From a bacterium (GTDB lineage Bacteria > Patescibacteriota > Minisyncoccia > UBA6257 > JAGOQP01), in contig JAKAHY010000002.1 of assembly GCA_021814695.1 (NCBI GenBank), forward strand, positions 8,920 through 72,919: a DNA stretch of 64,000 nt, given 5' to 3'. This document shows positions 3,499 through 49,184 of this stretch, one piece after another; position 1 is the stretch's first letter; each line of letters starts with the position of its first letter. The notes below the pieces were generated by a model. That model made no database searches. It was not told where the DNA came from and worked only from the letters and a program-made list of their open reading frames with translations. Position numbers and translations under genes: made by a program.

Positions 3499-5643
3499 AT
3501 GAAAAAATCTTCATTAATCGTGGTCATTTTGCTTGTTGTGGCAAGCGTAGGAATGACCGTCATCTTTTCAAATCAAGTGTCGATAAAGGGATTTCTATCG
3601 AGCGTTTATTCTACTGCATCAGGCAGAAATCATATACAGCTGGCAAACGCTCAGTCCTTGGGACAGGGGGTTGTAGTTTTTAAAGCGCAATTTGGCCATT
3701 TGGAAGCAACCGGCCAAGTTGTCTCCGGTATTTCCGGACTAGCGGGGCTGCCGGTGACAAAATTTGTTCCCGACAGAGACCTTTCGGATTCTGAAAAAAA
3801 GCAGGTTGAAGTAAACATCACCGAAGAGAACACCGTTTTCGGATTTATTGTGGCAAAAAACGTTTCATTAGGGCAGGGAATCGGTTTTAACATTCCCCAA
3901 GGAGAAGTTTATAACTACGGTTTTTATGTGAATTCCGACATCCTTCCTCAAGGATGGACATATAACTCTTCTTGCGTAGAGACGGGAGGAAATATTAAAT
4001 TATCTGCCGGCCAACAAAGCGAATGCACGATAGGTTTTTATCTGAAACCAACGCCTGCGCCGGTTACTCCTCCCGCTTCGACGTCCACTCCCGTCTCACC
4101 TCAGGAAGGAGCGTCAGGTACCGTTATTAGTGAAGATTCCGGTTCTGGATCGCTGCAGTTTGTAAAAAATATTTTGGACTTAAGTACGGGGTGGAAAAAC
4201 CCCGGATCGGATAAAATATTGGACGCAAAAATCGTTGAATTATACGGAAAGAAATTTCTTATTGTTTCGACTCAAAACAAACATTTGCTTGTTTACGATG
4301 CTTCAAACCAGTTTTCGCCGGTTCTTTTGAAAGATAATGATTTATCAGGCAGTAACGTGTCGGCGTTTTATCTTGTGGTTTTAGATAATTTCAATTACGT
4401 ATTTGCCTGGGGAGGAAACTCTGCCAACTACGGATCTTTTAAGATTGAACAAGACGGATCTGCGTCTCTGGTAAAAAGTTACAAACCTGACCAATATAGC
4501 GTTACTCAACCGAATTTGGTTTTCGGGTTGTTTAGAGGGTTAGACGGTAAAGCGTATGGATTTGGAGGGAACGGGGGCGATGGATGGCTAACTATTTATG
4601 ACGTGTCCGATCCGGCAAACATCAGCGAAATTGGATCATATCAAGATGGCTTAGTCGGGAATCACTGCGGCAATTATGGTCTGATTGGATTGGACAGGCC
4701 GCTTCAATGGAATACTTCTCAACAAGGGAACAAGCTTTATCTGGTAACTCATGCGGACCAGTGCGTCCAGCGGCTGCATACTTCCGGAGACGCCAGAATT
4801 TATATTTTTGACGTTTCTGATCCAAAAAATCCGCAGCTTTCCCATCAATATGAGCTTTCCGGTTCTTTTAACCACATACCTTCGGACGCGACTAAGGCCG
4901 AACAGACATTTCTTTTTGGCGGGATCGCCGACATTGCCGTTGATTCAAATTCGGGTAAGGTTTTTGATTTTTACAGGACGGTTTTTGATTGGCAGGGGCC
5001 ATCCTGGTCTCAGATAGCAAACATAGTGCATGGTACTTTGTTTAGATACAGAACCGGACTGGTCACTCTTTCACTGCAATCGGACGGTTCTCTAAAAGAA
5101 TTGTCGCGGGCTTTATTGTGCGAACAAAAGGGCCCAATGTATGATGGTGGCGGTCCGCAATATTATCGATGCGGCGACGTGGATGGAAACGACAAAAATA
5201 CCCAAGGCGGATATGATTATTCGGCAAGAAATTCTCAACAAAATTACAACGGAGTTTTTCTCCTCAGTGGGCCGGGAAATAGCGGTCAGGTGGGCTTACT
5301 AAGGAGTGATAATAGTTTTGTTGTCATTCCCGATACCGCCGGAGAGATGACTAAATTTAAGACGGCTATTAAAGATTCATCTTATTATTCGAATATCTAT
5401 AATCCCGCTATCAATGGTGTTGTGACCCAGGTTGACAGTAAAACATTTGCCATCTATCAATTTGATAGTTATTCGTTAAGCGTCGTTAAGGTTTTGTTGT
5501 CGCAATCTCTTGTGGGGGGATCGAAAAATCCCTCTCCTCCAGTGACCGGAGTTGCGCCTTCGGCAAACGTACCACTAACATCACCCGCATTTTCATTTAA
5601 TGCGCTCCTGAACATCTTCAGAAGGATACTTAACAACTACTAA
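3499..5643 (+). CDS. Cell-surface protein, paralog A: N-terminal signal-anchor, P/T-rich linker, LVIVD-like beta-propeller repeats, conserved C-terminal tail
   Basis: Repeats of the type LTIYDVSDPANISEIGSY and IYIFDVSDPKNPQLSHQY; N-terminal TM MKKSSLIVVILLVVASVGMTVIF; C-terminus ...SPAFSFNALLNIFRRILNNY. Confidence 0.8.
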   Translation: MKKSSLIVVILLVVASVGMTVIFSNQVSIKGFLSSVYSTASGRNHIQLANAQSLGQGVVVFKAQFGHLEATGQVVSGISGLAGLPVTKFVPDRDLSDSEKKQVEVNITEENTVFGFIVAKNVSLGQGIGFNIPQGEVYNYGFYVNSDILPQGWTYNSSCVETGGNIKLSAGQQSECTIGFYLKPTPAPVTPPASTSTPVSPQEGASGTVISEDSGSGSLQFVKNILDLSTGWKNPGSDKILDAKIVELYGKKFLIVSTQNKHLLVYDASNQFSPVLLKDNDLSGSNVSAFYLVVLDNFNYVFAWGGNSANYGSFKIEQDGSASLVKSYKPDQYSVTQPNLVFGLFRGLDGKAYGFGGNGGDGWLTIYDVSDPANISEIGSYQDGLVGNHCGNYGLIGLDRPLQWNTSQQGNKLYLVTHADQCVQRLHTSGDARIYIFDVSDPKNPQLSHQYELSGSFNHIPSDATKAEQTFLFGGIADIAVDSNSGKVFDFYRTVFDWQGPSWSQIANIVHGTLFRYRTGLVTLSLQSDGSLKELSRALLCEQKGPMYDGGGPQYYRCGDVDGNDKNTQGGYDYSARNSQQNYNGVFLLSGPGNSGQVGLLRSDNSFVVIPDTAGEMTKFKTAIKDSSYYSNIYNPAINGVVTQVDSKTFAIYQFDSYSLSVVKVLLSQSLVGGSKNPSPPVTGVAPSANVPLTSPAFSFNALLNIFRRILNNY

Positions 5644-5656
5644 AAATTTAAAATAA

Positions 5657-5685
5657 AGCCCCCTGTAAATACAGGGGGCTTTTTG
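5657..5685 (+). terminator. Rho-independent terminator
   Basis: GCCCCCTGtaaataCAGGGGGCttttt. Confidence 0.7.
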
Positions 5686-5687
5686 AA

Positions 5688-5698
5688 TGTGATATAAT
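5688..5698 (+). promoter_or_regulatory. Extended -10 promoter TGTGATATAAT (copy 2)
   Basis: gaaTGTGATATAATgaaacaaATGaaaaaaac. The first ATG (5697) lies inside the -10 box, so the start at 5709 is preferred. Confidence 0.45.
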
Positions 5699-5708
5699 GA
5701 AACAAATG

Positions 5709-8321
5709 AAAAAAACATTACTCATCGGGTTTATTGTGGTCGGCATTGTAAGCTTTTCGGCATTTACCGCGCATGCTCAGTCGGTCAATTATCTTAGTAA
5801 ATTTTTTGCAGATGTCTACGGAGCGTTTTTTGGGAATTCCCAAACGCAAAAAGTTGACGCCCAAACAGTGGGTAATGGAACACTTACTATTCATGCTCAG
5901 ATATGTCAGACGCTCGGGAATTTCGAAAATCCAAGCAGTGCGACCTGTTCTGGTACTCCTCGCGACCCCAATTCTACGGAGTCTCCGTTATTTGTTTATG
6001 ATGTCCAGCGCATAGTTGGGAATGGAGCGAGCGCTCAAGTTACCACAGTTCTTTCAGGTATCGGTCCCGGACAAAGTTATTCGTTACCGGCGAATACTCC
6101 AAACGCTAGTAATAATAACAGAGATGAGTACGTGATTGTGTTTAAGGGGGCACCGACAAATTATTTGTACGTGAGACAAGGAGGAAATTTTGATTTGCCC
6201 TATAAATTTTCAATTTCTTCCGGACAAAATACTCAAGTAAATATTCCTTATGTTATTTATACGGCGATTGAATCAACGGGTCCTGTTGGCACTACTGTTA
6301 CCGCCGATATTGTTGATGGCAATGGAAATTTTGTCAGAGCGCTGACGGCTTCAGAAATTCAATCGGTATCCTTTGACATCCAGCATTCGGTTCCGGCCAC
6401 CGGAGGATATGTCGGATCGCATGCGAACAATTTTGATACTCAAGTTTCTTCGGGAAAATTAAATACTTCATATCAGCTTGCGACCTATGTCCATTCCGGT
6501 TCAATTTTGACAAATATTAAGCCACCATCCGGTTACGTAGTCAGATCAATTAAGCCGGGAACATATTTTGATCCTACTGATGACGTTACTATTCATTTTA
6601 CCAAGTCTCCTGTTTCGTCTCAGGTTCAAAAAGTTGATCAAATGCTCTATGTTCCTAATGGAATTAGCTATGTAAAAAAAATAGCTCAAACATATTCGGA
6701 CAATGAATACAAATATTCGAATCTTGACGTTGATTTATTTGCTTATTATGGAAACAATAATCGTCCTTTTCCCTTGAACTGGACAGTTGCCAAATATTCG
6801 GGAGTTCCTTATTTGTTTATGAATGGAGCAGGAAAGATAGTTATTTATAATATTTCCGATCCTAAAAATCCCAAACAAGTTAGTGAATATGTTCTTTCCG
6901 GTTTGGAAAAATTTAATCAATACAAAGATCGTCAGGGAAATACTTATGGACAGTGTTCTCCTAACCAAGAAGGTACTCATGATTTTATAACTGGAGCCGG
7001 TAAAGTTTTTGCTCTTGATGATTCCCCTTATCTTTTGATTGACATTCAGAGACCGGGTGGGCCAGGCCCTGGAGGGACGGCAGTTTTGTCCTTAGATCCT
7101 TCAACTATGGCCATAACCGCCTATCCTCAATGGACCGAGTGTAACAGTGGTCAAGATACTCCCGGAACCGCTTTCGGAATGTATAAAGGAAGTGACGGAA
7201 ATACTTATTTTATTTCCCAATTCCCGAATAATGCATATGATACGGGTGGAGTAGATACCGGGAATATTGGTATTTACACAATCAATTCTGCTGGTATTGC
7301 CAATAAAGTTGTCGTTCTCAGCGGAATGTCCGGGATTGCTCCGAGTTTGGATTATTCTAATGGAACAATCTCTGTTGTTTCCGTTGGAAGTAAAAAATAT
7401 CTTATTGGTAATGGAAAATCATCTATCGCAAACATAAATTCGACCAGTGCACCAATTTATATTTACGATATTTCCAATCCAAAAAATATAATCAAAATCA
7501 ATCAACAGATCACGGTGTCTACGTCTGGGTCCGGCAGATTAAAAATTGACGAACAAGCCAATCGTATGTATGTTCAGTCATCCATTCCAAATCCTGCCGC
7601 AACATCAACTTCGTACACCATCCCCAAAACATTACCTATTTGGCAGGTATATGACTTGAGTGTTTTGCCCAGTACTCCAAAATTAATTGCTACTTATAAC
7701 AAACCAACCGACCTACTTAATTCAAGTCAAGTGAATGCTGATTTTTCTCAAATTACCAAGAGATTAAATATTGCATCGTCAGGTAATCTTGTGGATATAA
7801 ATAATTCTTCTTTCACTTACGGCGCCTACGGATATTCTTCTTCACTCCAGTTGATAAATGTTTCAAATAATTTAGCTTATATATCACTGTATACAAACGG
7901 AAAAAACCCTTGGGATACGATTGCCAATCAAGCCGGAGTAACGGACGGAAGCGAATACGGGACCAATGCTATTCAATTTATAGTTGACGTGTCCAATGCG
8001 TCCAGTCCCAAAATACTTGGAATGATATTCGGGCATACGGAATATTCTGCTTACGGACTTTCCGCCGGCGGATGGTTTGATGTTCCTCTTTACGGAAGTA
8101 TCTATAACTATAACGGATATATTTACCGAGCCAATTTCCGCATCGCTGATGTATGGAAATTGGGGAATCCTCCGGCCCAAAGTACGGGAGGTGCTGGAAG
8201 TGGGGCTGGTGCGAGCGGCACTGGAACTACCGAAGGAGGATCTGCGCCATCATCAGTTCAATCTCCATTTTCTTTCAGTTCTCTTTTGAAGATATTCCAG
8301 AGAGTGTTTAATAATCAATAA
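5709..8321 (+). CDS. Cell-surface protein, paralog B: cleavable signal peptide, LVIVD-like repeats, conserved C-terminal tail (the ORF track starts at 5697)
   Basis: Signal peptide MKKTLLIGFIVVGIVSFSAFTAHA|QS; repeats IVIYNISDPKNPKQVSEY and IYIYDISNPKNIIKI; G/S/T-rich linker; C-terminus ...SPFSFSSLLKIFQRVFNNQ. Confidence 0.8.
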   Translation, partial: KKTLLIGFIVVGIVSFSAFTAHAQSVNYLSKFFADVYGAFFGNSQTQKVDAQTVGNGTLTIHAQICQTLGNFENPSSATCSGTPRDPNSTESPLFVYDVQRIVGNGASAQVTTVLSGIGPGQSYSLPANTPNASNNNRDEYVIVFKGAPTNYLYVRQGGNFDLPYKFSISSGQNTQVNIPYVIYTAIESTGPVGTTVTADIVDGNGNFVRALTASEIQSVSFDIQHSVPATGGYVGSHANNFDTQVSSGKLNTSYQLATYVHSGSILTNIKPPSGYVVRSIKPGTYFDPTDDVTIHFTKSPVSSQVQKVDQMLYVPNGISYVKKIAQTYSDNEYKYSNLDVDLFAYYGNNNRPFPLNWTVAKYSGVPYLFMNGAGKIVIYNISDPKNPKQVSEYVLSGLEKFNQYKDRQGNTYGQCSPNQEGTHDFITGAGKVFALDDSPYLLIDIQRPGGPGPGGTAVLSLDPSTMAITAYPQWTECNSGQDTPGTAFGMYKGSDGNTYFISQFPNNAYDTGGVDTGNIGIYTINSAGIANKVVVLSGMSGIAPSLDYSNGTISVVSVGSKKYLIGNGKSSIANINSTSAPIYIYDISNPKNIIKINQQITVSTSGSGRLKIDEQANRMYVQSSIPNPAATSTSYTIPKTLPIWQVYDLSVLPSTPKLIATYNKPTDLLNSSQVNADFSQITKRLNIASSGNLVDINNSSFTYGAYGYSSSLQLINVSNNLAYISLYTNGKNPWDTIANQAGVTDGSEYGTNAIQFIVDVSNASSPKILGMIFGHTEYSAYGLSAGGWFDVPLYGSIYNYNGYIYRANFRIADVWKLGNPPAQSTGGAGSGAGASGTGTTEGGSAPSSVQSPFSFSSLLKIFQRVFNNQ

Positions 8322-8333
8322 TAATTTGAAACA

Positions 8334-8359
8334 ATCCCCCTAGCTGGGGGATTTTTTTG
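8334..8359 (+). terminator. Rho-independent terminator
   Basis: ATCCCCCtagctGGGGGATttttttt. Confidence 0.7.
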
Positions 8360-8366
8360 CAAGCAA

Positions 8367-8377
8367 TGTGATATAAT
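8367..8377 (+). promoter_or_regulatory. Extended -10 promoter TGTGATATAAT (copy 3)
   Basis: tttttttgcaagcaaTGTGATATAATaaaacaaataaaaataaccATG. Confidence 0.45.
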
Positions 8378-8396
8378 AAAACAAATAAAAATAACC

Positions 8397-10580
8397 ATGA
8401 AAAAATATTCATTAATTGTGATTATCTTACTTGTTGTTGCAAGTATAGGGATTACCGCTATCTTTTCAAGTCAAGTGTCGATAACCGGATTTCTTTTGAG
8501 CGTTTACTCAACTGTTTCGGGGAGCAATCAAATACAGAGAGTAAATGCACAAACGACAGGCCAAGGAACCATATTATTCCAAGGCCAATTCGGTCATCTT
8601 GAATCGACCGGAAAGGTCACTACCGGAATTTCGGGCTTATCCGGACTTCCGGTGATGAAATTTGTTAAAGACCGTGACCTATCTAGCGATGAAAAAAATC
8701 AGATTAGAGTGGATGTTATTGAACATAACACTCCTTTTGAATTTGTAGTTGCAAAAAATATTTCGCTTGGAGAGGGTGTTAATTTTAATATTCCCGTAGG
8801 TTCGACATATAGATATAGTTTTTATGTTCACCCCGACTCGATTCCCTCCGGATGGGTTTATTATTCCGGTTGTTTAGAGACCGATGGGAATGTTTCGGTA
8901 CTGGCCGGTCAGCAAAGTACTTGCAGCATAGGATTTTATTTAAAGCCCGAAACAATCTCACCCCCTCCGGTCACATCAACATCTACGATCACGTCTACTC
9001 CTTCGGTAGGTGTTTCGGGAACTGTTGTCGGTGAAGATGCCAGCGCAGGATCGTTGCAGTTTGTAAAAAACGTTTTGGATTTAAGCTCACAAAGAAAGGG
9101 CATTATTTATGGAGTTTTGGACGCAAGAACCGTTAATTTGTATGGAAAAAATCTTCTGATAGTTGCTAGAGGTGGAGCTTACTCTGCTACCACTCCAACC
9201 TGGCATATGCTTGTTTATGATATAACCGATCCGCTTGCCCCGGTTCTTTTGAAGGATAATGATATGTCCGGAAGTGGCATAATCTATAGTTCTCCAATGA
9301 CCGGTTTGGCAGTGCTTGATGGCTTTAATTATGTATTTGTCCGTGGAAATGTCGGTTACGGTTCGTTTAAAATTAATCAGGACGGAACTGCGTCTCTTGT
9401 GAAAAGCTATAAATATTCTGAAGTTCAGCAGATACAGACAGATTTAATCAGGGGATTGTTCAACGGTCTGGATGGAAATATATACGGCTACGGAGGGTTT
9501 GTGCAGGATGGAGGACTCGTGCTTTATAACGTTTCCGATCCCGCTAATATTATTCAAGTTGGAACGTATACTAATGGTCTTGAACCAGCGATTGCCATCT
9601 ATGGACAAATTGGATTGAATCGCCAGAGCACTTGGGGCGTTGTTAAAGAAGGAGGCAAACTTTATCTTATTGCTCATGCGGACCAGTTGGTTCTGCGCCT
9701 TCATACGGATTATGATGGAATGATTTATGTTTTTGATGTGTCCAATCCGGCAAGTCCGCAGCTTTCACATATCTATAAAATGTCCAGCTCCTTTAATCAC
9801 CTTCCTTCCGATATGACTTCGTATGAGAAGATGTTTCTTTACGGAGGAGAAGCTAATATATCGGTTGATCCAATATCAAATAGAGTATTTGATTTTTACA
9901 GAACGGTTTTTGATTGGCAGGGACCCAATCAGCTTAAGATAAAAGACATTCCTAAAGGAGCCTTGTTTCGTTATAGAAATGGAATAGCCGTTCTTTCAAT
10001 AGGAATCGATGGTTCTTTGAAATCAAGTTCCAGTAACATATTATTGTGCGAAAGAATAGCCATTCAAGATAATGGGACGTCAGGCGAAGATAAATGTGAT
10101 ACAAAGAGTCCCGAAACGGTTGGGGGATATTATAGTTCCAGTCTTTATGGAAACAGGAATCCTCAAGAAAATTATAACGGAGTATTTCTTCTTGGCGACG
10201 TGAATAATGTCGGACATGTAGGGCTGTTAAAAAGCGATGGTAGTTTTGTTATCATACCCGATCCAACCGGAGAAATGCTTAAATTCAAATCTGTCTTGGC
10301 TGACCCGTCGTATTATTCCGATCCTGGTTTTCGTTCGTCTCCAATCAATGGCATTGTCACTCAAGTTGATAGCAAAACCTTTGCAATATTTCAGATTGAT
10401 AATTATTCCATAAGTGTTACAAAGCTAAATCTATCACAATCCATAACGAGCGTAACACAAAAATCTTCGCCACCTACCACAAATGCCCCTAGTTCATTAA
10501 ATACATCATCTCCTACTCAGACTCCATTTTCCTTCAGCTCGCTCCTGAGAATATTTCAGAGGGTGTTCAATAGTCAGTAA
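8397..10580 (+). CDS. Cell-surface protein, paralog C (close paralog of A)
   Basis: N-terminal 230 aa nearly collinear with paralog A; repeats VLYNVSDPANIIQVGTY and IYVFDVSNPASPQLSHIY; C-terminus ...TPFSFSSLLRIFQRVFNSQ. Confidence 0.8.
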   Translation: MKKYSLIVIILLVVASIGITAIFSSQVSITGFLLSVYSTVSGSNQIQRVNAQTTGQGTILFQGQFGHLESTGKVTTGISGLSGLPVMKFVKDRDLSSDEKNQIRVDVIEHNTPFEFVVAKNISLGEGVNFNIPVGSTYRYSFYVHPDSIPSGWVYYSGCLETDGNVSVLAGQQSTCSIGFYLKPETISPPPVTSTSTITSTPSVGVSGTVVGEDASAGSLQFVKNVLDLSSQRKGIIYGVLDARTVNLYGKNLLIVARGGAYSATTPTWHMLVYDITDPLAPVLLKDNDMSGSGIIYSSPMTGLAVLDGFNYVFVRGNVGYGSFKINQDGTASLVKSYKYSEVQQIQTDLIRGLFNGLDGNIYGYGGFVQDGGLVLYNVSDPANIIQVGTYTNGLEPAIAIYGQIGLNRQSTWGVVKEGGKLYLIAHADQLVLRLHTDYDGMIYVFDVSNPASPQLSHIYKMSSSFNHLPSDMTSYEKMFLYGGEANISVDPISNRVFDFYRTVFDWQGPNQLKIKDIPKGALFRYRNGIAVLSIGIDGSLKSSSSNILLCERIAIQDNGTSGEDKCDTKSPETVGGYYSSSLYGNRNPQENYNGVFLLGDVNNVGHVGLLKSDGSFVIIPDPTGEMLKFKSVLADPSYYSDPGFRSSPINGIVTQVDSKTFAIFQIDNYSISVTKLNLSQSITSVTQKSSPPTTNAPSSLNTSSPTQTPFSFSSLLRIFQRVFNSQ

Positions 10581-10668: not shown

Positions 10669-13600
10669 ATGTTGAGAAATCTTAAACACTTTAATCCGCC
10701 GGAAATTGAGGAAAAAGTTTTACAGCTTTGGAAAGAAAAAGGGATATTTCAAAAAACACTCAAAGTTCCAAAAGGAAAAAAGGCCCTGCCTACCGGCAGG
10801 CAGGCAAAAATATTTCGGTTTTGGGAAGGTCCACCGACAGCCAATGGCCGTCCCGGAATTCATCATATTTTAGCCCGTTCTTTTAAGGACGTTGTTTTGC
10901 GTTTTAAAACGATGCAAGGGTATACGGTTCCCCGTAAGGGTGGTTGGGATACTCATGGATTGCCCGTTGAAATCCAGGTTGAAAAGCAGCTCGGATTTAA
11001 AACAAAAAAAGATATAGAAGATTACGGAATAGCCGCATTCAACCAAAAATGTAAAGAATCAGTCTGGCTTTATCAAAGCGAATGGGAAAAATTGACCGAA
11101 CGCATGGGTTTTTGGCTGGATTTGAAAAATCCTTATGTCACATACCACAAAGATTACATAGAGTCGCTTTGGTGGATCATCAAACAAGTTTGGGATAAAG
11201 GGTTGATGTATCAAGGGCATAAAGTGGTTCCTTGGTGTACTCGCTGCGGGACAGCTCTTTCTTCCCATGAATTGGCTCAAGGATACAAAGAGCTTACCGA
11301 TACTTCTGTTTACATAAAATTTAAACTTCTTCCAAAACAAAAAATCGGTTCTTTTATAACCGATGATAAAACATACATCTTATCCTGGACGACGACTCCT
11401 TGGACTTTGCCCGGAAACGTCGCTTTGGCAGTCGGAAATAAAATCAAATATATTGCGGCAAAAATCGGAGGAGAGACTTTTATTATTGCGGAAGATCTTG
11501 CCGGATCGGTTTTGGGATCGGAAAATCATAAAGTTATCAATGAATTTAAAGGCGAGTCGATTTCAGGGAAAGAATACGCCCCACTTTTTGAAATTGCGGC
11601 ATTAAAAAAACCGGAATCGTACAAGGTATATCCGGCTAAATTTGTGACAACCACCGATGGAACGGGGGTGGTGCACACGGCCGTAATGTACGGAGAGGAC
11701 GATTATAACCTGGGAAAAGAAGTCGGACTTCCTCAGCATCATACGGTTACCGAACAAGGAACTTTCACAAAAGACGTTAAAGGATTTGAAGGGATGTACG
11801 TCAAAGCCAAGGAGACCGAGGATAAGATACTAGATTATCTAAAGAAAAATAATTTCCTTTTGCAAACACAGGCTTATACCCATGAATATCCTCATTGCTG
11901 GAGATGTGGAACTCCGCTTTTGTATTACGCGCGCAGTTCATGGTTTGTAGCGATGTCGAAACTGAAAGATAATCTGATCGAAAGCAACCAGGGAACCAAC
12001 TGGGTTCCGGCACATATCAAAGAGGGCAGATATGGAGAATGGCTCTCCGAAATTAAAGATTGGAATTTTTCACGGGAAAGATATTGGGGCACCCCACTGC
12101 CGATCTGGACGTGCGAGAATTGTGGAAACCATAAAGCTGTTGGAAGTTATAAAGAGCTTTCGGAACATCTTCCTTCTAGTACCAACAGATATATTCTTGT
12201 CCGTCATGGAGAAGCGGGGCAAAATGTTTCCAATATAATCAACTGCGACCCCAAAGATAAGGATAAATACCCGTTAACAACCAATGGAATAATCCAGGCG
12301 AAGAGAACTTCCCTGAGCCTCAAGAAAAAAATAAAAAAAATAGACGCGATTATCTCGTCGGATTTTATTCGGACAAAGGAAACCGCAAAAATTATCGGCG
12401 ATGAATTTGGAATAAAGAAAATAATCACCGATCCGCTTTTGAGGGAAGTTAACATGGGAGATTTTAACGGGGACAATGTTTCTCGTTACCACGAGTACTT
12501 TTCTTCGCTTGAAGAAAAATTTATGAAACGGACCCCTAACGGAGAAAACCTCAGAGATCTGGCCGCAAGAAGCTACGATTTTATACAAAAATGTGAAAAA
12601 AAATACAGCGGGAAAACTATTGTTGTGGTAGGGCATGAATATCCGCTGTGGATGGCGGAGACCGTTCTTTCTGGATGGAGTCAGGAAGAATCGGTGTCGG
12701 AAAAAGAAAAAAGAGGTCCCGATTTTATAGAAGTCGGAGGATTTGATTCCGTTACTTTTGTTCCGGCATCAAGAGATGAACAGGGAATCTGTGATTATCA
12801 TAAGCCATATGTGGATTCAATCAGCATCCCTTGCGAAAAATGCGGAAAAAAGATGAATCGAGTTAAAGAAGTTGCCGACGTATGGTTTGATTCGGGGTCA
12901 ATGCCATTTGCCCAAGATCATTATCCTTTTGAGAAGGGTGATAAAGTCGGGAAAGCGCCCCAATCGTTTCCGGCCGATTATATCTGTGAGGCAGTCGATC
13001 AGACCCGCGGGTGGTTTTACACTCTTATGGCCGTCTCTACATTATTGGATTATGAAACGCCGTATAAAAACGTCGTTTGCCTAGGGCATATAAACGACAA
13101 GCATGGACAGAAAATGTCCAAATCAAAAGGGAACATTGTTGATCCATGGATGATAATAGATAAATATGGCATTGATGCCGTTAGGTGGTATTTTTACACC
13201 GTTAATGCTCCGGGGGAGCCGAAGAATTTTGACGAGAATGAGGTTGCTAAAGTACTGAGAAAATTCAGCATGACTCTTTATAATTCGTTCGCGTTTTTGG
13301 CGCTTTATGGAAAACAGAAGGTAAGTATCCAAAAGAAACCTTCATCGCCGAATATTTTGGACAGGTGGATTTTGGCAAGGCTAAATCAAACAACTGTCGG
13401 AGTTTCGGACAAAATGGACGCATATGATTTCTTGGCTACCGGACAAATAATAGAATCGTTTATTGACGATCTTTCCAGATGGTACATTCGCCGATCGAGA
13501 AAGAGATTCCAAAAAATTTCGGATAAATCGGATTGGGGTACGGCGACCGGTGTTTTGGCGTATGTTTTGGCCGAATTTTCAAAAGTGATCGCTCCCTTTA

Positions 13601-14223
13601 CTCCATTTTTCGCCGAAGCTCTTTACAGATCCATAGCCGAATTTTGTTCGTTTAGCGCAAAAGAATCCGTTCATCTCGAATCATGGCCGGAGGGCAGGGT
13701 TTTTAATGACGATGCGGTTATGTCGGAAGCCATGAAACAGATAAGAGACTACGCCAGTGCTGTTTTGGCAAAAAGAGCCGAAGTTGGAATCAAAGTGCGG
13801 CAGCCTTTGAGCTTGTTGAAAATAAGAAGCATTAAGTCTAAAGAAAAAGACTCTAAACAATTATTAGAAGTGTTAAGGGATGAAGTTAACGTCAAAGAAG
13901 TTGTGATTGATCCAAAAATAGAAAATGAATTTGAGTTGGATATCAACATCACTCCGGAACTTAAAGCCGAAGGAATTTTGAGGGAAATAGCCCGGACAAT
14001 TCAGGAATTGAGACAAAGTTCGGCATGTGTTCCCAAGGATAAAATAGAAGTTCGCATTTCCGGACCTGCCGACATTGAAGCGGTGGTCAAAAACGGACAA
14101 GCCACGCTTTGCCAATACGTTAACGCCAAAAATATTCTTTTCGGTAAGAGCGGTAAATTTGATTCCGAAATTGAAACCAAAATTGATTCGTCAAAAATTT
14201 GGATAGGTTTAAGAAAAATATAA
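10669..14223 (+). CDS. ileS: Isoleucyl-tRNA synthetase (1184 aa) with an inserted histidine-phosphatase-like domain
   Basis: HIGH region PTANGRPGIHHILARS; KMSKS motif QKMSKSKGN; CP1/editing region; CxxC..CxxC zinc motifs (CENCG ... CEKCG); about 205 extra residues between the zinc knuckles. Confidence 0.95.
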   Translation: MLRNLKHFNPPEIEEKVLQLWKEKGIFQKTLKVPKGKKALPTGRQAKIFRFWEGPPTANGRPGIHHILARSFKDVVLRFKTMQGYTVPRKGGWDTHGLPVEIQVEKQLGFKTKKDIEDYGIAAFNQKCKESVWLYQSEWEKLTERMGFWLDLKNPYVTYHKDYIESLWWIIKQVWDKGLMYQGHKVVPWCTRCGTALSSHELAQGYKELTDTSVYIKFKLLPKQKIGSFITDDKTYILSWTTTPWTLPGNVALAVGNKIKYIAAKIGGETFIIAEDLAGSVLGSENHKVINEFKGESISGKEYAPLFEIAALKKPESYKVYPAKFVTTTDGTGVVHTAVMYGEDDYNLGKEVGLPQHHTVTEQGTFTKDVKGFEGMYVKAKETEDKILDYLKKNNFLLQTQAYTHEYPHCWRCGTPLLYYARSSWFVAMSKLKDNLIESNQGTNWVPAHIKEGRYGEWLSEIKDWNFSRERYWGTPLPIWTCENCGNHKAVGSYKELSEHLPSSTNRYILVRHGEAGQNVSNIINCDPKDKDKYPLTTNGIIQAKRTSLSLKKKIKKIDAIISSDFIRTKETAKIIGDEFGIKKIITDPLLREVNMGDFNGDNVSRYHEYFSSLEEKFMKRTPNGENLRDLAARSYDFIQKCEKKYSGKTIVVVGHEYPLWMAETVLSGWSQEESVSEKEKRGPDFIEVGGFDSVTFVPASRDEQGICDYHKPYVDSISIPCEKCGKKMNRVKEVADVWFDSGSMPFAQDHYPFEKGDKVGKAPQSFPADYICEAVDQTRGWFYTLMAVSTLLDYETPYKNVVCLGHINDKHGQKMSKSKGNIVDPWMIIDKYGIDAVRWYFYTVNAPGEPKNFDENEVAKVLRKFSMTLYNSFAFLALYGKQKVSIQKKPSSPNILDRWILARLNQTTVGVSDKMDAYDFLATGQIIESFIDDLSRWYIRRSRKRFQKISDKSDWGTATGVLAYVLAEFSKVIAPFTPFFAEALYRSIAEFCSFSAKESVHLESWPEGRVFNDDAVMSEAMKQIRDYASAVLAKRAEVGIKVRQPLSLLKIRSIKSKEKDSKQLLEVLRDEVNVKEVVIDPKIENEFELDINITPELKAEGILREIARTIQELRQSSACVPKDKIEVRISGPADIEAVVKNGQATLCQYVNAKNILFGKSGKFDSEIETKIDSSKIWIGLRKI
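10785..10804. repeat. 20-nt GC-rich near-perfect palindrome CCTGCCTACCGGCAGGCAGG inside ileS (encodes ..ALPTGRQAK..)
   Basis: Inverted-repeat arms CCTGCCTA/CAGGCAGG around CCGG; the same palindrome recurs at 36984..37003 in csaA. Confidence 0.6.
12175..12790 (+). other. Inserted histidine phosphatase (phosphoglycerate-mutase-like, branch 1) domain within IleRS
   Basis: YILVRHGEAGQN (RHG catalytic motif with N at +7) ... VVGHEYPLW (second His); inserted between WTCENCG and YHKPYVDSISIPCEKCG. Confidence 0.6.
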
Positions 14224-30227: not shown

Positions 30228-30299
30228 GCGGGTATCGTATAGCGGCTATTATACTTCCTTGCCAAGGAAGAGATACGGGTCCGACTCCCGTTACCCGCT
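30228..30299 (+). tRNA. tRNA-Gly (GCC)
   Basis: Acceptor GCGGGTA/TACCCGC; anticodon arm CTTCC-TTGCCAA-GGAAG; T-arm ACGGG-TCCGACT-CCCGT. Confidence 0.9.
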
Positions 30300-30302
30300 C
30301 AA

Positions 30303-30337: not shown

Positions 30338-30466
30338 GGGTGTTGACGGGGTAGGATGCGGGGTGGTCGAGGGGCTGCAAGCCCCTCGTGTTGGAAATTA
30401 TTCAAAACCGAGGGTTTTGAAGGAGCGAATATAATGAGCGACGTCCGATTTCCCGTTACCCGCTCA
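30336..30466 (+). repeat. tRNA-trailer structured element, copy E1, ending in a duplicate of the tRNA-Gly(GCC) 3' end
   Basis: GGGGTGGTCGAGGGGctgcaaGCCCCTCGTGTTGGAAATTA-TTCAAAACCgagGGTTTTGAAGGAG-CGAATATAATGAGCGACGTCCGATTTCCC followed by GTTACCCGCTCA (= tRNA 3' end). Confidence 0.6.
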
Positions 30467-30502: not shown

Positions 30503-30650
30503 TGTCCGCCCGGAAGGGAGTCTCACGTCGCTCCGACATTGCGTCGGAGCTCCCAAGACACCCTCGGTTTCTTGACGCTCCTCCGGAGCTTTTTCCTACA
30601 CGGGAGATTAAGCATCTCCCGACCCCTCTCTATTCAATTCCTTGTTGACG
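30503..30650 (-). repeat. tRNA-trailer structured element, copy E2 (minus strand), fused to a duplicate of the tRNA-Lys 3' end
   Basis: Minus strand GGAATTGAATAGAGAG-GGGTCGGGAGATgcttaATCTCCCGTGTAGGAAAAAG-CTCCggaGGAG-CGTCAAGAAACCGAGGGTGTCTTGGGAG-CTCCGACgcaatGTCGGAG-CGACGTGAGACTCCC-TTCCGGGCGGACA. Confidence 0.6.
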
Positions 30651-30689: not shown

Positions 30690-30826
30690 TGTCCGCCCGG
30701 AAGGGAATCTCACGTCGCTCCGACCTTGCGTCGGAGCTCCTTAAAACCATTCGGTTTTAATATTTCCTCCACGGAAAACCTTCGGTTTCCCGACCCCATC
30801 CGATTTGATTCCTTTACTGACGAATA
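30690..30826 (-). repeat. tRNA-trailer structured element, copy E3 (minus strand), fused to a second duplicate of the tRNA-Lys 3' end
   Basis: Minus strand GGAATCAAATCGGAT-GGGGTCGGGAAACCgaagGTTTTCCGTGGAGGAAATA-TTAAAACCgaatGGTTTTAA-GGAG-CTCCGACgcaagGTCGGAG-CGACGTGAGATTCCC-TTCCGGGCGGACA. Confidence 0.6.
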
Positions 30827-30865
30827 TAAAACAAAAAGCACCACAAGGGTGTTTTTTGTTTTCTG

Positions 30866-30938
30866 TCCGCCCGGAAGGGATCGAACCTTCGACCGTCTCC
30901 TTAAGAGGGAGCTGCTCTACCAGCTGAGCTACGGGCGG
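30866..30938 (-). tRNA. tRNA-Lys (CTT)
   Basis: Minus strand CCGCCCG-TA-GCTCAGCTGGTAGAGC-A-GCTCC-CTCTTAA-GGAGA-CGGTC-GAAGG-TTCGATC-CCTTC-CGGGCGG-A. Confidence 0.9.
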
Positions 30939-30978
30939 TACGAAACCATTCTGCCATCAAAAAAATAATTTTGCAATC

Positions 30979-35154: not shown

Positions 35155-35394
35155 TTTGATATTTGACGAAGTCAATATATTCTGTTTTTATATTCTTTCG
35201 GACTGGTAATGTGGACAGTTTTCTGAAACAATAAATATGACACTGTGTGGGTGTCGAGCGTTCACGTTCTTTGTTTTAATTATCTATCGGTCTTGAGCCG
35301 AAGAGTTTTTTACACGCATTTATTTGTTTATTTGAATTAAAATTGGAAATTGGTATTTTTTCTTGTATTTCACCCGTGGTGAGGCATAGTATGT

Positions 35395-35425
35395 CGGTAG
35401 TACGTGCATTCGTTACGTTAGATAA
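35395..35425 (+). other. Degenerate partial copy of the tRNA-Pro 5' half (D-arm plus altered anticodon arm) immediately upstream of the tRNA
   Basis: TAGTATGTCGGTAGTACGTGCATTCGTTACGT versus tRNA TAGTATACCGGTAGTACGTGCGCTTCGGGTGCGT. Confidence 0.3.
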
Positions 35426-35429
35426 ATAT

Positions 35430-35500
35430 CGGGCTGTAGTATACCGGTAGTACGTGCGCTTCGGGTGCGTAAAGACCGGGTTCGATTCCCGGCAGCCCGA
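35430..35500 (+). tRNA. tRNA-Pro (CGG)
   Basis: CGGGCTG-TA-GTAT-ACCGGTA-GTAC-G-TGCGC-TTCGGGT-GCGTA-AAGA-CCGGG-TTCGATT-CCCGG-CAGCCCG-A. Confidence 0.9.
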
Positions 35501-35544
35501 CTAAAATAGAAATCCCATTCGGGATTTTTATTTTTGCTTGGACT

Positions 35545-35680
35545 CCGGAAATTGAATCAGAAGGGGTCGGGGAACCTGTGGTTCCCCGTGTAGGAAAAAG
35601 TCCGCCCTGGGCGGACGTCAAGAAACCGAGGGTGTTTTGGGAGGAGTGAAACGACGACGTGAGATTCCCGGCAGCCCGAC
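35545..35680 (+). repeat. tRNA-trailer structured element, copy E4, fused to a duplicate of the tRNA-Pro 3' end (GATTCCCGGCAGCCCGAC)
   Basis: GGAAATTGAATCAGAAG-GGGTCGGGGAACCtgtGGTTCCCCGTGTAGGAAAAAG-TCCGCCCtggGGCGGA-CGTCAAGAAACCGAGGGTGTTTTGGGAGGAGTGAAACGACGACGTGAGATTCCC-GGCAGCCCGAC. It is followed by a second copy of the tRNA flank and the first 16 nt of a further element (GGAATTGAATCGGAAG). Confidence 0.6.
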
Positions 35681-35772
35681 GAAAATAAAATTCCCCTTTA
35701 GGGGAGTTTTATTTATGTTTGGGTTTCAGGGGAATTGAATCGGAAGAAAAATGTTCTTAAATTTGATATACT

Positions 35773-37355: not shown

Positions 37356-37359
37356 AAAT

Positions 37360-37406
37360 TATAGTGACATTGCATGAGTGTGGGTTCGGTTCTCGCTGGA
37401 TCTACC
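37360..37406 (+). other. tRNA-like 3' fragment (T-arm-like plus ..CTACCA) immediately downstream of tRNA-Ala(CGC)
   Basis: ATAGTGACATTGCATGAGTGTGGGTTCGGTTCTCGCTGGATCTACCA, which is not the 3' end of the adjacent tRNA. Confidence 0.3.
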
Positions 37407-37491
37407 AAAAACAAATCCCCCCTTAGTTATCTAGTTGACTTTCGGATAACTTTTGATTACTATATCAATATAAATTGATATAGTTTATCAT

Positions 37492-47832: not shown

Positions 47833-47960
47833 ATTTGAAAATATCCCGACAAGTGAGGGGATTTTGTATAGTCCTTCTTCGCATAAAGCTTCGAAGGACA
47901 CTTTTCGTCTGGCTTGCACTTCGTAGCTCGCCAGGGCGAAGAAGTGAGCGGGTAAGGGGA
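47833..47960. repeat. Direct repeat copy a (about 128 bp): tRNA-Gly(TCC) downstream flank plus the 16-nt tRNA 3' end
   Basis: Near-identical to 48061..48188 (offset 228 bp); ends in ..GTGAGCGGGTAAGGGGA, the reverse complement of the tRNA 3' end. Confidence 0.8.
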
Positions 47961-48061
47961 AGTCTTACGCTCACCCCCGACCCCCGCTTAAGAAACCTTC
48001 GGGTTTCTTACGTCCCTATTTTCCAACACGGGGGTTCGCATTCGACTCCCAAACTCACCCA
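47961..48061 (-). repeat. Divergent copy (E5) of the tRNA-trailer element between the two direct repeats
   Basis: Minus strand GGGAGTCGAATGCGAACCCCCGTGTTGGAAAATAGG-GACGTAAGAAACCcgaagGGTTTCTTAAG-CGGGGGTCGGGGGTGAGCGTAAGACTTCCCC followed by TTACCCGCTCA. Confidence 0.45.
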
Positions 48062-48188
48062 CAAAAAAATATCCCGACAAGTGAGGGGATTTTGTATAGT
48101 CCTTCTTCGCATAAAGCTTCGAAGGACACTTTTCGTCTGGCTTGCACTTCGTAGCTCGCCAGGGCGAAGAAGTGAGCGGGTAAGGGGA
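48061..48188. repeat. Direct repeat copy b (overlaps the 3' end of the intact tRNA-Gly(TCC))
   Basis: See copy a. Confidence 0.8.
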
Positions 48189-48941: not shown

Positions 48942-49014
48942 GGGCCGTTAGCTTAGTTGGTAGAGCGCCTCGTTTGCAACGAGGAGGTCACCGGTTCGAA
49001 TCCGGTACGGTCCA
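48942..49014 (+). tRNA. tRNA-Ala (TGC)
   Basis: GGGCCGT (G3·U70)-TA-GCTT-AGTTGGTA-GAGC-G-CCTCG-TTTGCAA-CGAGG-AGGTC-ACCGG-TTCGAAT-CCGGT-ACGGTCC-A. Confidence 0.9.
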
Positions 49015-49020
49015 CATAAC

Positions 49021-49054: not shown

Positions 49055-49184
49055 TGAATCAGGGTCGGTTTGAATATTTAGGGGTCGGGGTATTTGTAAA
49101 TACCCCGAGTAAGAAAATTTGAGAAACCGTGGGTTTCTCACGAACGAATGAAATGAGTGAGGTGAGATTCCGGTACGGTCCACA
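49055..49184 (+). repeat. tRNA-trailer structured element, copy E6, fused to a duplicate of the tRNA-Ala(TGC) 3' end
   Basis: GGTTTGAATATTTAG-GGGTCGGGGTATTTgtaAATACCCCGAGTAAGAAAAT-TTGAGAAACCgtgGGTTTCTCA-CGAACGAATGAAATGAGTGAG-GTGAGATTCC-GGTACGGTCCACA. Confidence 0.6.

Follow-up and report, generated by a model that had tools for sequence, protein, structure and literature searches.

Structured elements flanked by duplicated tRNA 3' ends: an apparently undescribed family of putative insertion elements in Patescibacteria

A junction in the T-loop, a direct repeat of the tRNA 3' end and tandem arrays together form the classical signature of tRNA-targeting integrases. We deal here with a tRNA-Pro(CGG) gene in a 64-kb stretch of patescibacterial DNA (64,000 nt of contig JAKAHY010000002.1, hereafter the window), where a short element, E4, is followed by a duplicate of the tRNA 3' end, and with the family of related elements to which this copy belongs (the E4 family). 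Known tRNA-targeting integrative elements, namely tyrosine-integrase phages, integrative and conjugative elements (ICEs), P4-like elements and Prochlorococcus tycheposons, resemble the E4 family in the T-loop junction and the direct repeat of the tRNA 3' end (18/18 positions at tRNA-Pro, 15–133 nt elsewhere), in keeping the gene intact and in forming tandem arrays, sometimes with cargo. The E4 family differs from them by its unit of ~105–130 nt, the duplication of a native trailer whose length varies, the presence of an inverted target copy, a core of several covarying helices and the use of protein genes as additional targets. It also differs in that no integrase was found: Pfam annotation of the open reading frames (ORFs) of the window returned housekeeping genes only, without integrase, reverse transcriptase or TnpA/TnpB, and the ORFs within 2.5 kb of the 125 genome matches listed include no recurrent recombinase and no conserved neighbor gene. 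Eukaryotic short interspersed nuclear elements (SINEs), which depend on target-primed reverse transcription, are short, non-coding, non-autonomous and made of structured RNA, as the E4 family appears to be, and the two share variable-length duplications around a non-coding unit, a link to tRNA sequences and identical copies at new sites. Unlike SINEs, E4 elements are bacterial, carry no poly(A) tail or tail like that of long interspersed nuclear elements, have no identified partner reverse transcriptase, duplicate up to 133 nt and possess an inverted target copy that forms a closing helix; for them, RNA mediation is presumed.

Other systems offer more partial parallels. Integron attC sites and cassette arrays also combine a folded single strand, an inverted-repeat stem and arrays of units, some with ORFs (compare locus L090 below). 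However, the stem boxes of attC are conserved IntI-binding sites, whereas the E4 stem is target-specific and varies with the target while the center is conserved; no IntI or attI was found, the duplicated flank is native, and the R-box consensus (RYYYAAC ... GTTRRRY) is absent at the junctions read. The ends of IS200/IS605 elements, their PATE derivatives and TnpB omega-RNAs are comparable in their small structured ends, their internal guide pairing with the boundary and their scaffold followed by flank-derived sequence, but IS200/IS605 elements make no target duplication and use a 4-nt guide pairing, whereas the E4 loci examined have long target duplications, no tnpA/tnpB ORFs and no sequence or Rfam similarity to these elements. 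The bridge and seek RNAs of IS110/IS1111 are structured non-coding RNAs with target-complementary segments, as in the E4 family, but they lie beside a DEDD recombinase gene, for which there is no equivalent here, recognize both target and donor by internal loops and cause no long duplication. REP/BIME sequences, Rickettsia palindromic elements, Correia elements and other miniature inverted-repeat transposable elements (MITEs) are, like the E4 family, multi-copy, intergenic or at gene ends, protein-less and foldable; they are simple palindromes or bear terminal inverted repeats with short, fixed target duplications, in contrast to the junction of four to five helices, the conserved unpaired motifs, the circular permutation and the long target-derived flanks of E4 elements. 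The element would work most like a non-autonomous, target-duplicating retroposon or an integrative cassette.

On balance, the sequences suggest that E4 and its relatives are probably small (~100–130 nt), non-coding, protein-less structured elements that insert by copy-and-paste and are non-autonomous. The family is apparently undescribed and a member of none of the families tested; we regard it as a new kind of element, and our confidence that it is mobile is moderate.

The tRNA-Pro(CGG) locus and the other copies in the window

The tRNA-Pro(CGG) gene is intact (table 1) and qualifies as a tRNA, which the downstream 18-nt copy of its 3' end (X2) does not by itself; X2 is identical to the last 18 nt of the gene (X1) at 18/18 positions, 179 nt apart. 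X1 is followed by a native trailer (Y1) with a terminator-like hairpin, which the terminator scan called on the - strand; the T-run after this hairpin is on the + strand. Next come a short segment, aX (CTCCGGAAATTGAA), which is an imperfect reverse complement of the T-loop, the T-stem 3' strand and 2 nt more, then a purine linker, and then the core, recovered with E ~1e-10 by a covariance model made from other copies. Beyond X2, the second flank (35681–35746) is ~79% identical to the first (35502–35563), and its hairpin stem shows a compensatory change from AUCCC/GGGAU to UCCCC/GGGGA. A preliminary description of this locus, which had reported the 18-nt duplicate, the repeated flank with compensatory hairpin changes and a junction inside the T-loop, is confirmed on these three points. 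We take it that the duplicated tRNA 3' end and terminator is the target duplication that accompanies insertion. The terminal stub had been seen as the first 16 nt of a truncated further element: the sequence is there, matches 35547–35563 with 2 mismatches and stops where a core would start, but it corresponds to the aX and linker of the flanking repeat and not to a truncated element. The AI-2E transporter gene starts after it. Extension of the flanking repeat into aX, with or without linker, occurs at tRNA-Pro and also at two other loci, L064 and L035; the stub ends at the core boundary in tRNA-Pro, 2 nt into the core in L035 and ~6 nt short of it in L064. In our own reading, the tRNA-Pro stub would be either a secondary extension of the repeat or an abortive second event. 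The degenerate copy of the tRNA 5' half upstream of the gene is also real (23/27 matches to positions 35437–35463, with a score of 36, where 500 shuffles gave at most 25), with its coordinates shifted from 35395–35425 to 35387–35412. A syntenic locus in another genome (L110: tRNA-Arg, tRNA-Pro(CGG), AI-2E transporter, tRNA-Ala) holds an orthologous copy, whose helices and junction motifs are as in E4 despite sequence changes.

Within the 64 kb, the covariance model recovers exactly six copies and no other match. These copies occupy five of the eight tRNA genes of the window, after each of them comes the 3' end of the tRNA beside which it lies, and when they are compared their helices differ almost completely while their junction motifs are identical. 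After the tRNA-Gly(GCC) copy stands a bidirectional terminator common to the tRNA-Lys array, and the two sets of copies face each other across it. At tRNA-Gly(TCC), the element is of a permuted type (see below) and lies between two exact 123-nt X..Y copies (48066–48188, overlapping the tRNA 3' end, and 47838–47960; 100% identity), each made of the tRNA 3' end and a 108-nt trailer. The idea of a tandemly amplifying module specific to tRNA-Pro is thus only partly retained: tandem units do exist (two at tRNA-Lys, besides the stub at tRNA-Pro), but the unit is neither self-contained nor private to tRNA-Pro, E4 being a member of a phylum-wide family found at many tRNAs and at protein-gene ends. As a separate observation, a fragment located 3' of tRNA-Ala(CGC) (37356–37410) resembles the T-arm and acceptor 3' end of another tRNA (GTGGGTTCGGTTCTCGCTGGATCTACCA), has no core and may be a scar; tRNA-Ala(CGC) encodes its own CCA, unlike the neighboring tRNAs.

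Table 1. Positions of E4, the other element copies and associated features in the window
Feature	Position	Strand	Support
tRNA-Pro(CGG), intact	35430–35501	+	ARAGORN; Rfam RF00005, 55.8 bits (gathering threshold 29)
X1, target segment (last 18 nt of tRNA-Pro)	35484–35501	+	sequence
Y1, native 41-nt trailer; terminator-like hairpin 35510–35527 and T-run	35502–35542	+	sequence
aX CTCCGGAAATTGAA and purine linker	35543–35562	+	sequence
E4 conserved core, 100 nt, G+C-rich	35563–35662	+	covariance-model match 35555–35624, 47.4 bits
E4 parts: GGGGUC; P2 35569–35587; GUGUAGGAAAAA; P3 35600–35616; P4 35619–35639; GGAG..CGAC..GUGA		+	sequence
X2 (GATTCCCGGCAGCCCGAC), duplicate of the tRNA 3' end, from T-loop GAUU to discriminator	35663–35680	+	repeat family D7
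Y2, diverged trailer/terminator duplicate; hairpin 35691–35705	35681–35726	+	alignment
Terminal stub CAGGGGAATTGAATCGGAAG, second aX and linker (GGAATTGAATC..GGAAG)	35727–35746	+	alignment
Degenerate, incomplete copy of the tRNA-Pro 5' half, with D-arm and anticodon stem	35387–35412	+	local alignment
Copy at tRNA-Gly(GCC) (tRNA 30228–30300): aX, core, duplicate 3' end TCCCGTTACCCGCTC 30451–30465	30338–30465	+	model match 30355–30427, 74.6 bits; D9
Lys-1, next to tRNA-Lys(CTT) (30865–30938, -): aX 30800–30819, core, duplicate 3' end 30691–30705	30691–30819	-	model match 30735–30805, 61 bits
Lys-2, second tandem unit: aX and linker 30627–30647, core, duplicate 3' end 30504–30519	30504–30647	-	model match 30567–30634, 46.5 bits; repeat families D6, D13
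tRNA-Gly(TCC) locus; permuted-type element 47961–48065 (105 nt)	47838–48188	-	model match 47983–48064, 19.8 bits; D2
Copy at tRNA-Ala(UGC) (48942–49015): aX and linker 49062–49080, core 49081–49168, duplicate 3' end TCCGGTACGGTCCAC 49169–49183	49062–49183	+	model match 49073–49146, 75.1 bits
Two-hairpin trailer motif	2542–2671 (tmRNA); 48066–48173, 47838–47945 (tRNA-Gly(TCC))	-	sequence

Anatomy, targets and distribution of the family

The order of parts, as read from 54 cleanly resolved loci, is constant: X..Y, aX, linker (NNGRAR), GGGGUC, helix P2, GUGKAGGAAA, an optional P3, P4, GGAG-P5-CGAC and X..Y again. In tRNA targets, X..Y spans from the T-loop to past the terminator, X starting in the T-loop, or immediately 3' of it in a subfamily that conserves GUGARAU; aX is the reverse complement of the first 8–20 nt of X, and the linker is purine-rich. 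The P4 hairpin is UUAGAAACCGWGGGUUUCUAA and the P5 hairpin is variable. P2 and P4 are 95.9% paired across 113 distinct sequences and show double-sided changes in 14 of their 16 pairs, a value reached by none of 500 shuffles, and slid controls collapse. On the tRNA-sense strand, G:U-type pairs exceed A:C-type pairs by 36 to 12, which indicates that the structured strand is co-oriented with the tRNA; this asymmetry does not tell RNA from single-stranded DNA. The sequences themselves show GNRA-like loops and, with GGAG/CGAC, a possible tandem G.A motif. It may also be observed that a GCGAAGC (or GCGCAGC) heptamer recurs as a minimal P3 or P5 and as an insert in the T-loop-derived segment (e.g., L019, L041, L053, L061, L079). 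The oligonucleotide d(GCGAAGC) forms a DNA mini-hairpin of unusual stability; this hints at single-stranded DNA as the possible folded form, although RNA fits too.

In the tRNA-Gly(TCC) copy, GGGGGUCGGGGG sits after P4 and not before P2. Throughout the permuted subfamily, P2 is opened into a terminal helix (typically AGAAUCCCCC/GGGGGAUUUCU) and a short link replaces the P1/P5 arm; the junction motifs are kept, and the arrangement is a true circular permutation of the same junction. Permuted copies have an A/T-rich, -10-like box just upstream and are multi-copy (two within one 11-kb contig). Fifteen of them lie 4–7 nt upstream of the 5' end of a same-strand tRNA, five abut the 3' end of an opposite-strand tRNA, and the L171 copy (2150–2248) fills exactly the gap between two tRNAs; the tRNA-flush copies look as if they were released by tRNA processing. 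The duplicating configuration is found among permuted copies at tRNA-Gly(TCC) of the window and at L152, L164 and L175. A riboswitch or other cis-regulatory leader was considered and rejected, since the genes downstream of 60 permuted copies are unrelated and the canonical copies lie 3' of tRNAs.

Of the 125 genome matches listed, 53 lie just 3' of a same-strand tRNA (27 isoacceptors) and 4 are in another arrangement with a tRNA. The element also occurs at the 3' ends of protein genes (L011, L005, L020, L034) and antisense at the 5' ends of translational GTPase genes (L018, L025). At L011, L018, L020, L025 and L034, the gene end is duplicated, with an intact copy left and a matching aX, and an aX matching its protein-gene target was likewise recorded at L011, L025, L034, L111 and L120; at L005, the duplicate has diverged so far that automated searches for repeats and by BLAST miss it. 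Target duplications range from 15 to 133 nt (median 31). The aX segments match the reverse complement of the first 10 nt of their own duplicated segment at 7.6/10 positions on average, compared with 5.4/10 in controls whose flanks were exchanged among loci (200 permutations, maximum 5.85).

A scan for the exact core pattern in one genome per species gave at least 120 loci, nearly all in Patescibacteria (Parcubacteria/Paceibacteria lineages, metagenome-assembled genomes [MAGs] labeled as Saccharibacteria, and Berkelbacteria). A metagenome scan for the permuted order gave 119 loci (L133–L251), almost all from Patescibacteria, where ~1 was expected by chance; a collection of viral contigs scanned for the core pattern gave 0 matches. 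No Rfam 15 family matches the core at the gathering threshold over the whole window, and when three regions with elements and four loci of the permuted type were searched at E <= 10 or E <= 1, the matches were at chance level only. No description of such an element is present in the full-text literature searched; a paper on group I tRNA introns (PMC13011429) deals with anticodon-loop introns and is unrelated.

Mobility and a possible mechanism of insertion

A sister-strain contig (DAIBZT010000035.1, GCA_027423305.1) has flanks identical to those of the window at tRNA-Gly(TCC) and lacks exactly one 228-nt unit there, which proves a recent gain or loss of the unit. Variation in copy number, which the preliminary description had envisaged for the tRNA-Pro unit, exists at tRNA-Gly(TCC) but not at tRNA-Pro, where close relatives of the window genome show none. 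Moreover, two copies from different MAGs (L113 and L114) have cores 100% identical over ~110 nt, a third (L104, from the same MAG as L113) has a core 94% identical, and the three stand at three different tRNAs. In each of them, aX is a near-perfect reverse complement of 17–22 nt of the 3' end of its own tRNA and comes right after the terminator hairpin, X1, terminator and aX forming one long palindrome. This argues that aX was made from the target on arrival of the core, because point mutation cannot re-match 5–10 positions with the core unchanged. In young copies, the insertion begins at aX (with 0–5 extra nt) and stops at the core 3' end, and the flanking repeats are perfect, up to 133 nt long and of native sequence. 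The loci show a constant core at new targets, a direct repeat of the target that begins at a defined point and reaches to the insertion site, and, accompanying insertion, an inverted copy of a short stretch at the start of this segment; both copies are able to pair around the core. Units may also be reiterated, as in the tandem at the tRNA-Lys of the window and in a cargo-bearing array at L090. The latter (positions 1–1900) is a tRNA-linked array of two units, each with a small ORF (of 161 and 126 aa, neither matching Pfam), in the order ORF, terminator, aX, identical core and tRNA 3' end, reminiscent of a cassette array. In a sister strain, locus L128 is identical to window positions 30700–30940 up to the middle of Lys-1 and then diverges, the P5 hairpin being swapped for an unrelated one; this mid-element replacement points to a recombination breakpoint inside the Lys-1 element.

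The junctions suggest the following mechanism. The mobile part would consist of the purine linker and the multi-helix core, which is conserved. Insertion would produce a direct repeat of the target, from the T-loop or the T-stem 3' strand through the tRNA 3' end and the trailer/terminator, so that the target gene would stay intact, and a short inverted copy of the target start (aX) would be laid down 5' of the core. Because aX pairs with the downstream duplicate, the core would then be closed by a target-built helix. A single continuous synthesis could account for these events: the strand copying the target would fold back at or after the terminator, copy the tRNA 3' end in reverse (aX), switch into a donor core, switch back at the T-loop and copy X..Y again. 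In an equivalent route, the core would be copied from a nick in the T-loop that acts as primer, and the new strand would then snap back on the target. The enzyme that does the synthesis, a polymerase or a reverse transcriptase, would be encoded elsewhere. The T-loop sequence GTTCGAAT, nearly universal and palindromic, stands at both ends of the tRNA-type unit and might act as microhomology, which would explain the preference for tRNAs and easy hopping between isoacceptors. Since reverse transcriptases are prone to fold-back and template-switch jumps, a SINE-like RNA intermediate is attractive; a replicative polymerase with a DNA donor is the alternative. Repeated insertion, or unequal recombination between flanking repeats, could yield the tandem units at tRNA-Lys, the stub at tRNA-Pro and the loss of a unit at tRNA-Gly(TCC). 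The long-term conservation of the fold suggests that structure is needed either for insertion or for a host function. Capture of RNA 3' ends is disfavored, as the L034 duplication ends exactly at a stop codon and those of L018 and L025 are antisense to gene 5' ends.

Our confidence in this specific mechanism, deduced from junction anatomy, is lower than in mobility itself. It is conceivable, and we suggest it only tentatively, that the family is the bacterial counterpart of SINEs, a structured RNA or single-stranded DNA copy being written in, at the T-loops of tRNAs and at other gene ends, by target-primed, snap-back, template-switching synthesis. Equally tentatively, the closing helix would then derive from the inverted target copy, the duplication of the gene end would spare the host gene, and the elements would amount to target-templated insertion modules without a protein, active and spreading horizontally in Patescibacteria.

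Several observations weigh against mobile elements of this kind. The empty tRNA-Gly(TCC) allele could be a deletion through the 123-nt repeats instead of the ancestral state. No enzyme for insertion was identified in the window or near the loci. Single-sequence folding of E4 is unremarkable (z = -1.3), and the asymmetry between G:U and A:C pairs is weak in the closing helix (26 to 17). The tRNA-Pro(CGG) copy is retained, with conserved structure, at L110, and from copy to copy the helices change completely around fixed junction sequences; long-term purifying selection on a functional RNA would look like this, a pattern that suits an RNA of use to the host no less than a selfish one. Finally, 101 of 117 permuted members have no flanking duplication and resemble ordinary small-RNA genes. 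As to enzymes, stand-alone GIY-YIG nuclease genes (81–94 aa) were noticed within 2 kb of an element at L019, L030, L031, L059, L076 and L107 (6 among the 120 loci listed). This association is probably a coincidence in GIY-YIG-rich genomes, because distance and orientation are inconsistent; the small GIY-YIG protein is nevertheless a candidate nicking enzyme.

If mobility is accepted, Patescibacteria, whose genomes are noted for extreme reduction, hold a type of mobile element without description in the literature searched, one that has no gene although its RNA fold is complex and conserved, and that occupies five of eight tRNA genes in a 64-kb window. The family would account for the partial tRNA 3' fragments found beside tRNA genes in these MAGs and for contig ends inside such repeats (two here), and it adds to structured RNAs a new family in which circular permutation occurs naturally. 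A mechanism of insertion in which the target is copied in both orientations would bear on the origins of retroelements and on programmable insertion. Even if host-beneficial and not selfish, a phylum-wide, multi-copy, tRNA-linked RNA deserves study.

Alternative explanations and other features of the window

The alternative that survives best, although we regard it as unlikely, is that E4 and its relatives are host small-RNA genes with a cellular function (tRNA processing, quality control or decoy, or transcription insulation), expressed from their own promoters or excised from tRNA operons, the duplicated gene ends being by-products of the making of new copies. Structure and junction sequences are indeed strongly conserved phylum-wide, and the orthologous tRNA-Pro(CGG) copy of syntenic L110 is easily understood in this way, as are the permuted copies with their -10-like box, their proximity to tRNA 5' ends or, for L171, their filling of an inter-tRNA gap; flank duplication moreover supplies each tRNA-linked copy with its own terminator. 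However, the sequences upstream of the window copies showed no promoter of the sigma-70 consensus type, and the element is multi-copy, dispersed and surrounded by unrelated neighbors. Its sense orientation at protein-gene 3' ends and antisense orientation at 5' ends (L018, L025) fit no single trans-pairing logic, and the presence/absence polymorphism and the identical cores at different targets would still require mobility.

Less probable still is a new small self-cleaving or self-ligating ribozyme. The core would be the ribozyme, the boundaries between linker and GGGGUC or between CGAC and X would be RNA cleavage sites bounding a mobile RNA, and the tandem units would be retrozyme- or satellite-like. 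Natural circular permutation is common among small ribozymes, and here it keeps the junction motifs; any sequence is tolerated in the closing helix, as in ribozyme substrate helices, the repeats at tRNA-Pro and L035 end at the boundary between linker and core (L064 ~6 nt before it), and the GNRA-like loops and the possible tandem G.A motif would also suit a ribozyme. No Rfam ribozyme family is matched even at E <= 10, and this explanation overlaps with that of a mobile element instead of excluding it. Attempts by eye to fit HDV-like and hammerhead folds did not succeed.

Improbable to a further degree is the view that the copies are attL/attR scars, or what minimally remains, of elements that carried an integrase (phage, ICE or tycheposon-like), the 100 nt being an attP arm. 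It accommodates the T-loop junction, the direct repeat of the tRNA 3' end, the tandem arrays and the ORF-bearing units between repeats in L090, but no integrase lies near the ~240 loci listed or in the window, and the scan of the viral collection was without matches. The filled and empty tRNA-Gly(TCC) alleles differ by 228 nt only, and the duplicated 123 nt are native trailer, not imported sequence. A protein-specified att site predicts neither the dozens of tRNAs and the protein-gene ends that are used nor their matching inverted copies, and the helices covary like those of a folded single strand. A TnpB-like guide RNA directed against its own flank was rejected as stated, because the target is intact beside the element and the chromosome would be exposed to cleavage through its own guide. 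That the tRNA-Pro repeats are an assembly artefact or the product of a single local slippage, as suggested by the ability of short repeats to break assemblies and by two short Logan contigs that terminate within the 625-nt intergenic region, inside the repeat, is hardly credible, since this region is base-for-base identical in four independent assemblies, which establishes the locus as real, and since the same architecture is found at five window tRNA genes and more than 200 loci elsewhere.

Some further features of the window deserve mention. A second two-hairpin motif (ACUUCGCC..GGCG..CGAAGUGCAAGC ... UCCUUCG.AGCUUUAUGCGAAG.AGGAC) is common to the tmRNA and tRNA-Gly(TCC) trailers, ahead of their terminators (table 1). 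It is native, since the empty tRNA-Gly(TCC) allele has it as well, and may be a further uncharacterized 3'-trailer RNA. At 10669–14223 (+), a class I aminoacyl-tRNA synthetase (tRNA-synt_1, 1184 aa) has a complete His_Phos_1 domain inserted at residues 509–673. Lastly, 3499–10580 (+) contains three tandem paralogous large ORFs (714, 874 and 727 aa), with an LVIVD repeat in the one scanned; their flanks are also repeated (repeat families D1, D3, D8 and D17), pointing to a recently expanded family of putative surface proteins.

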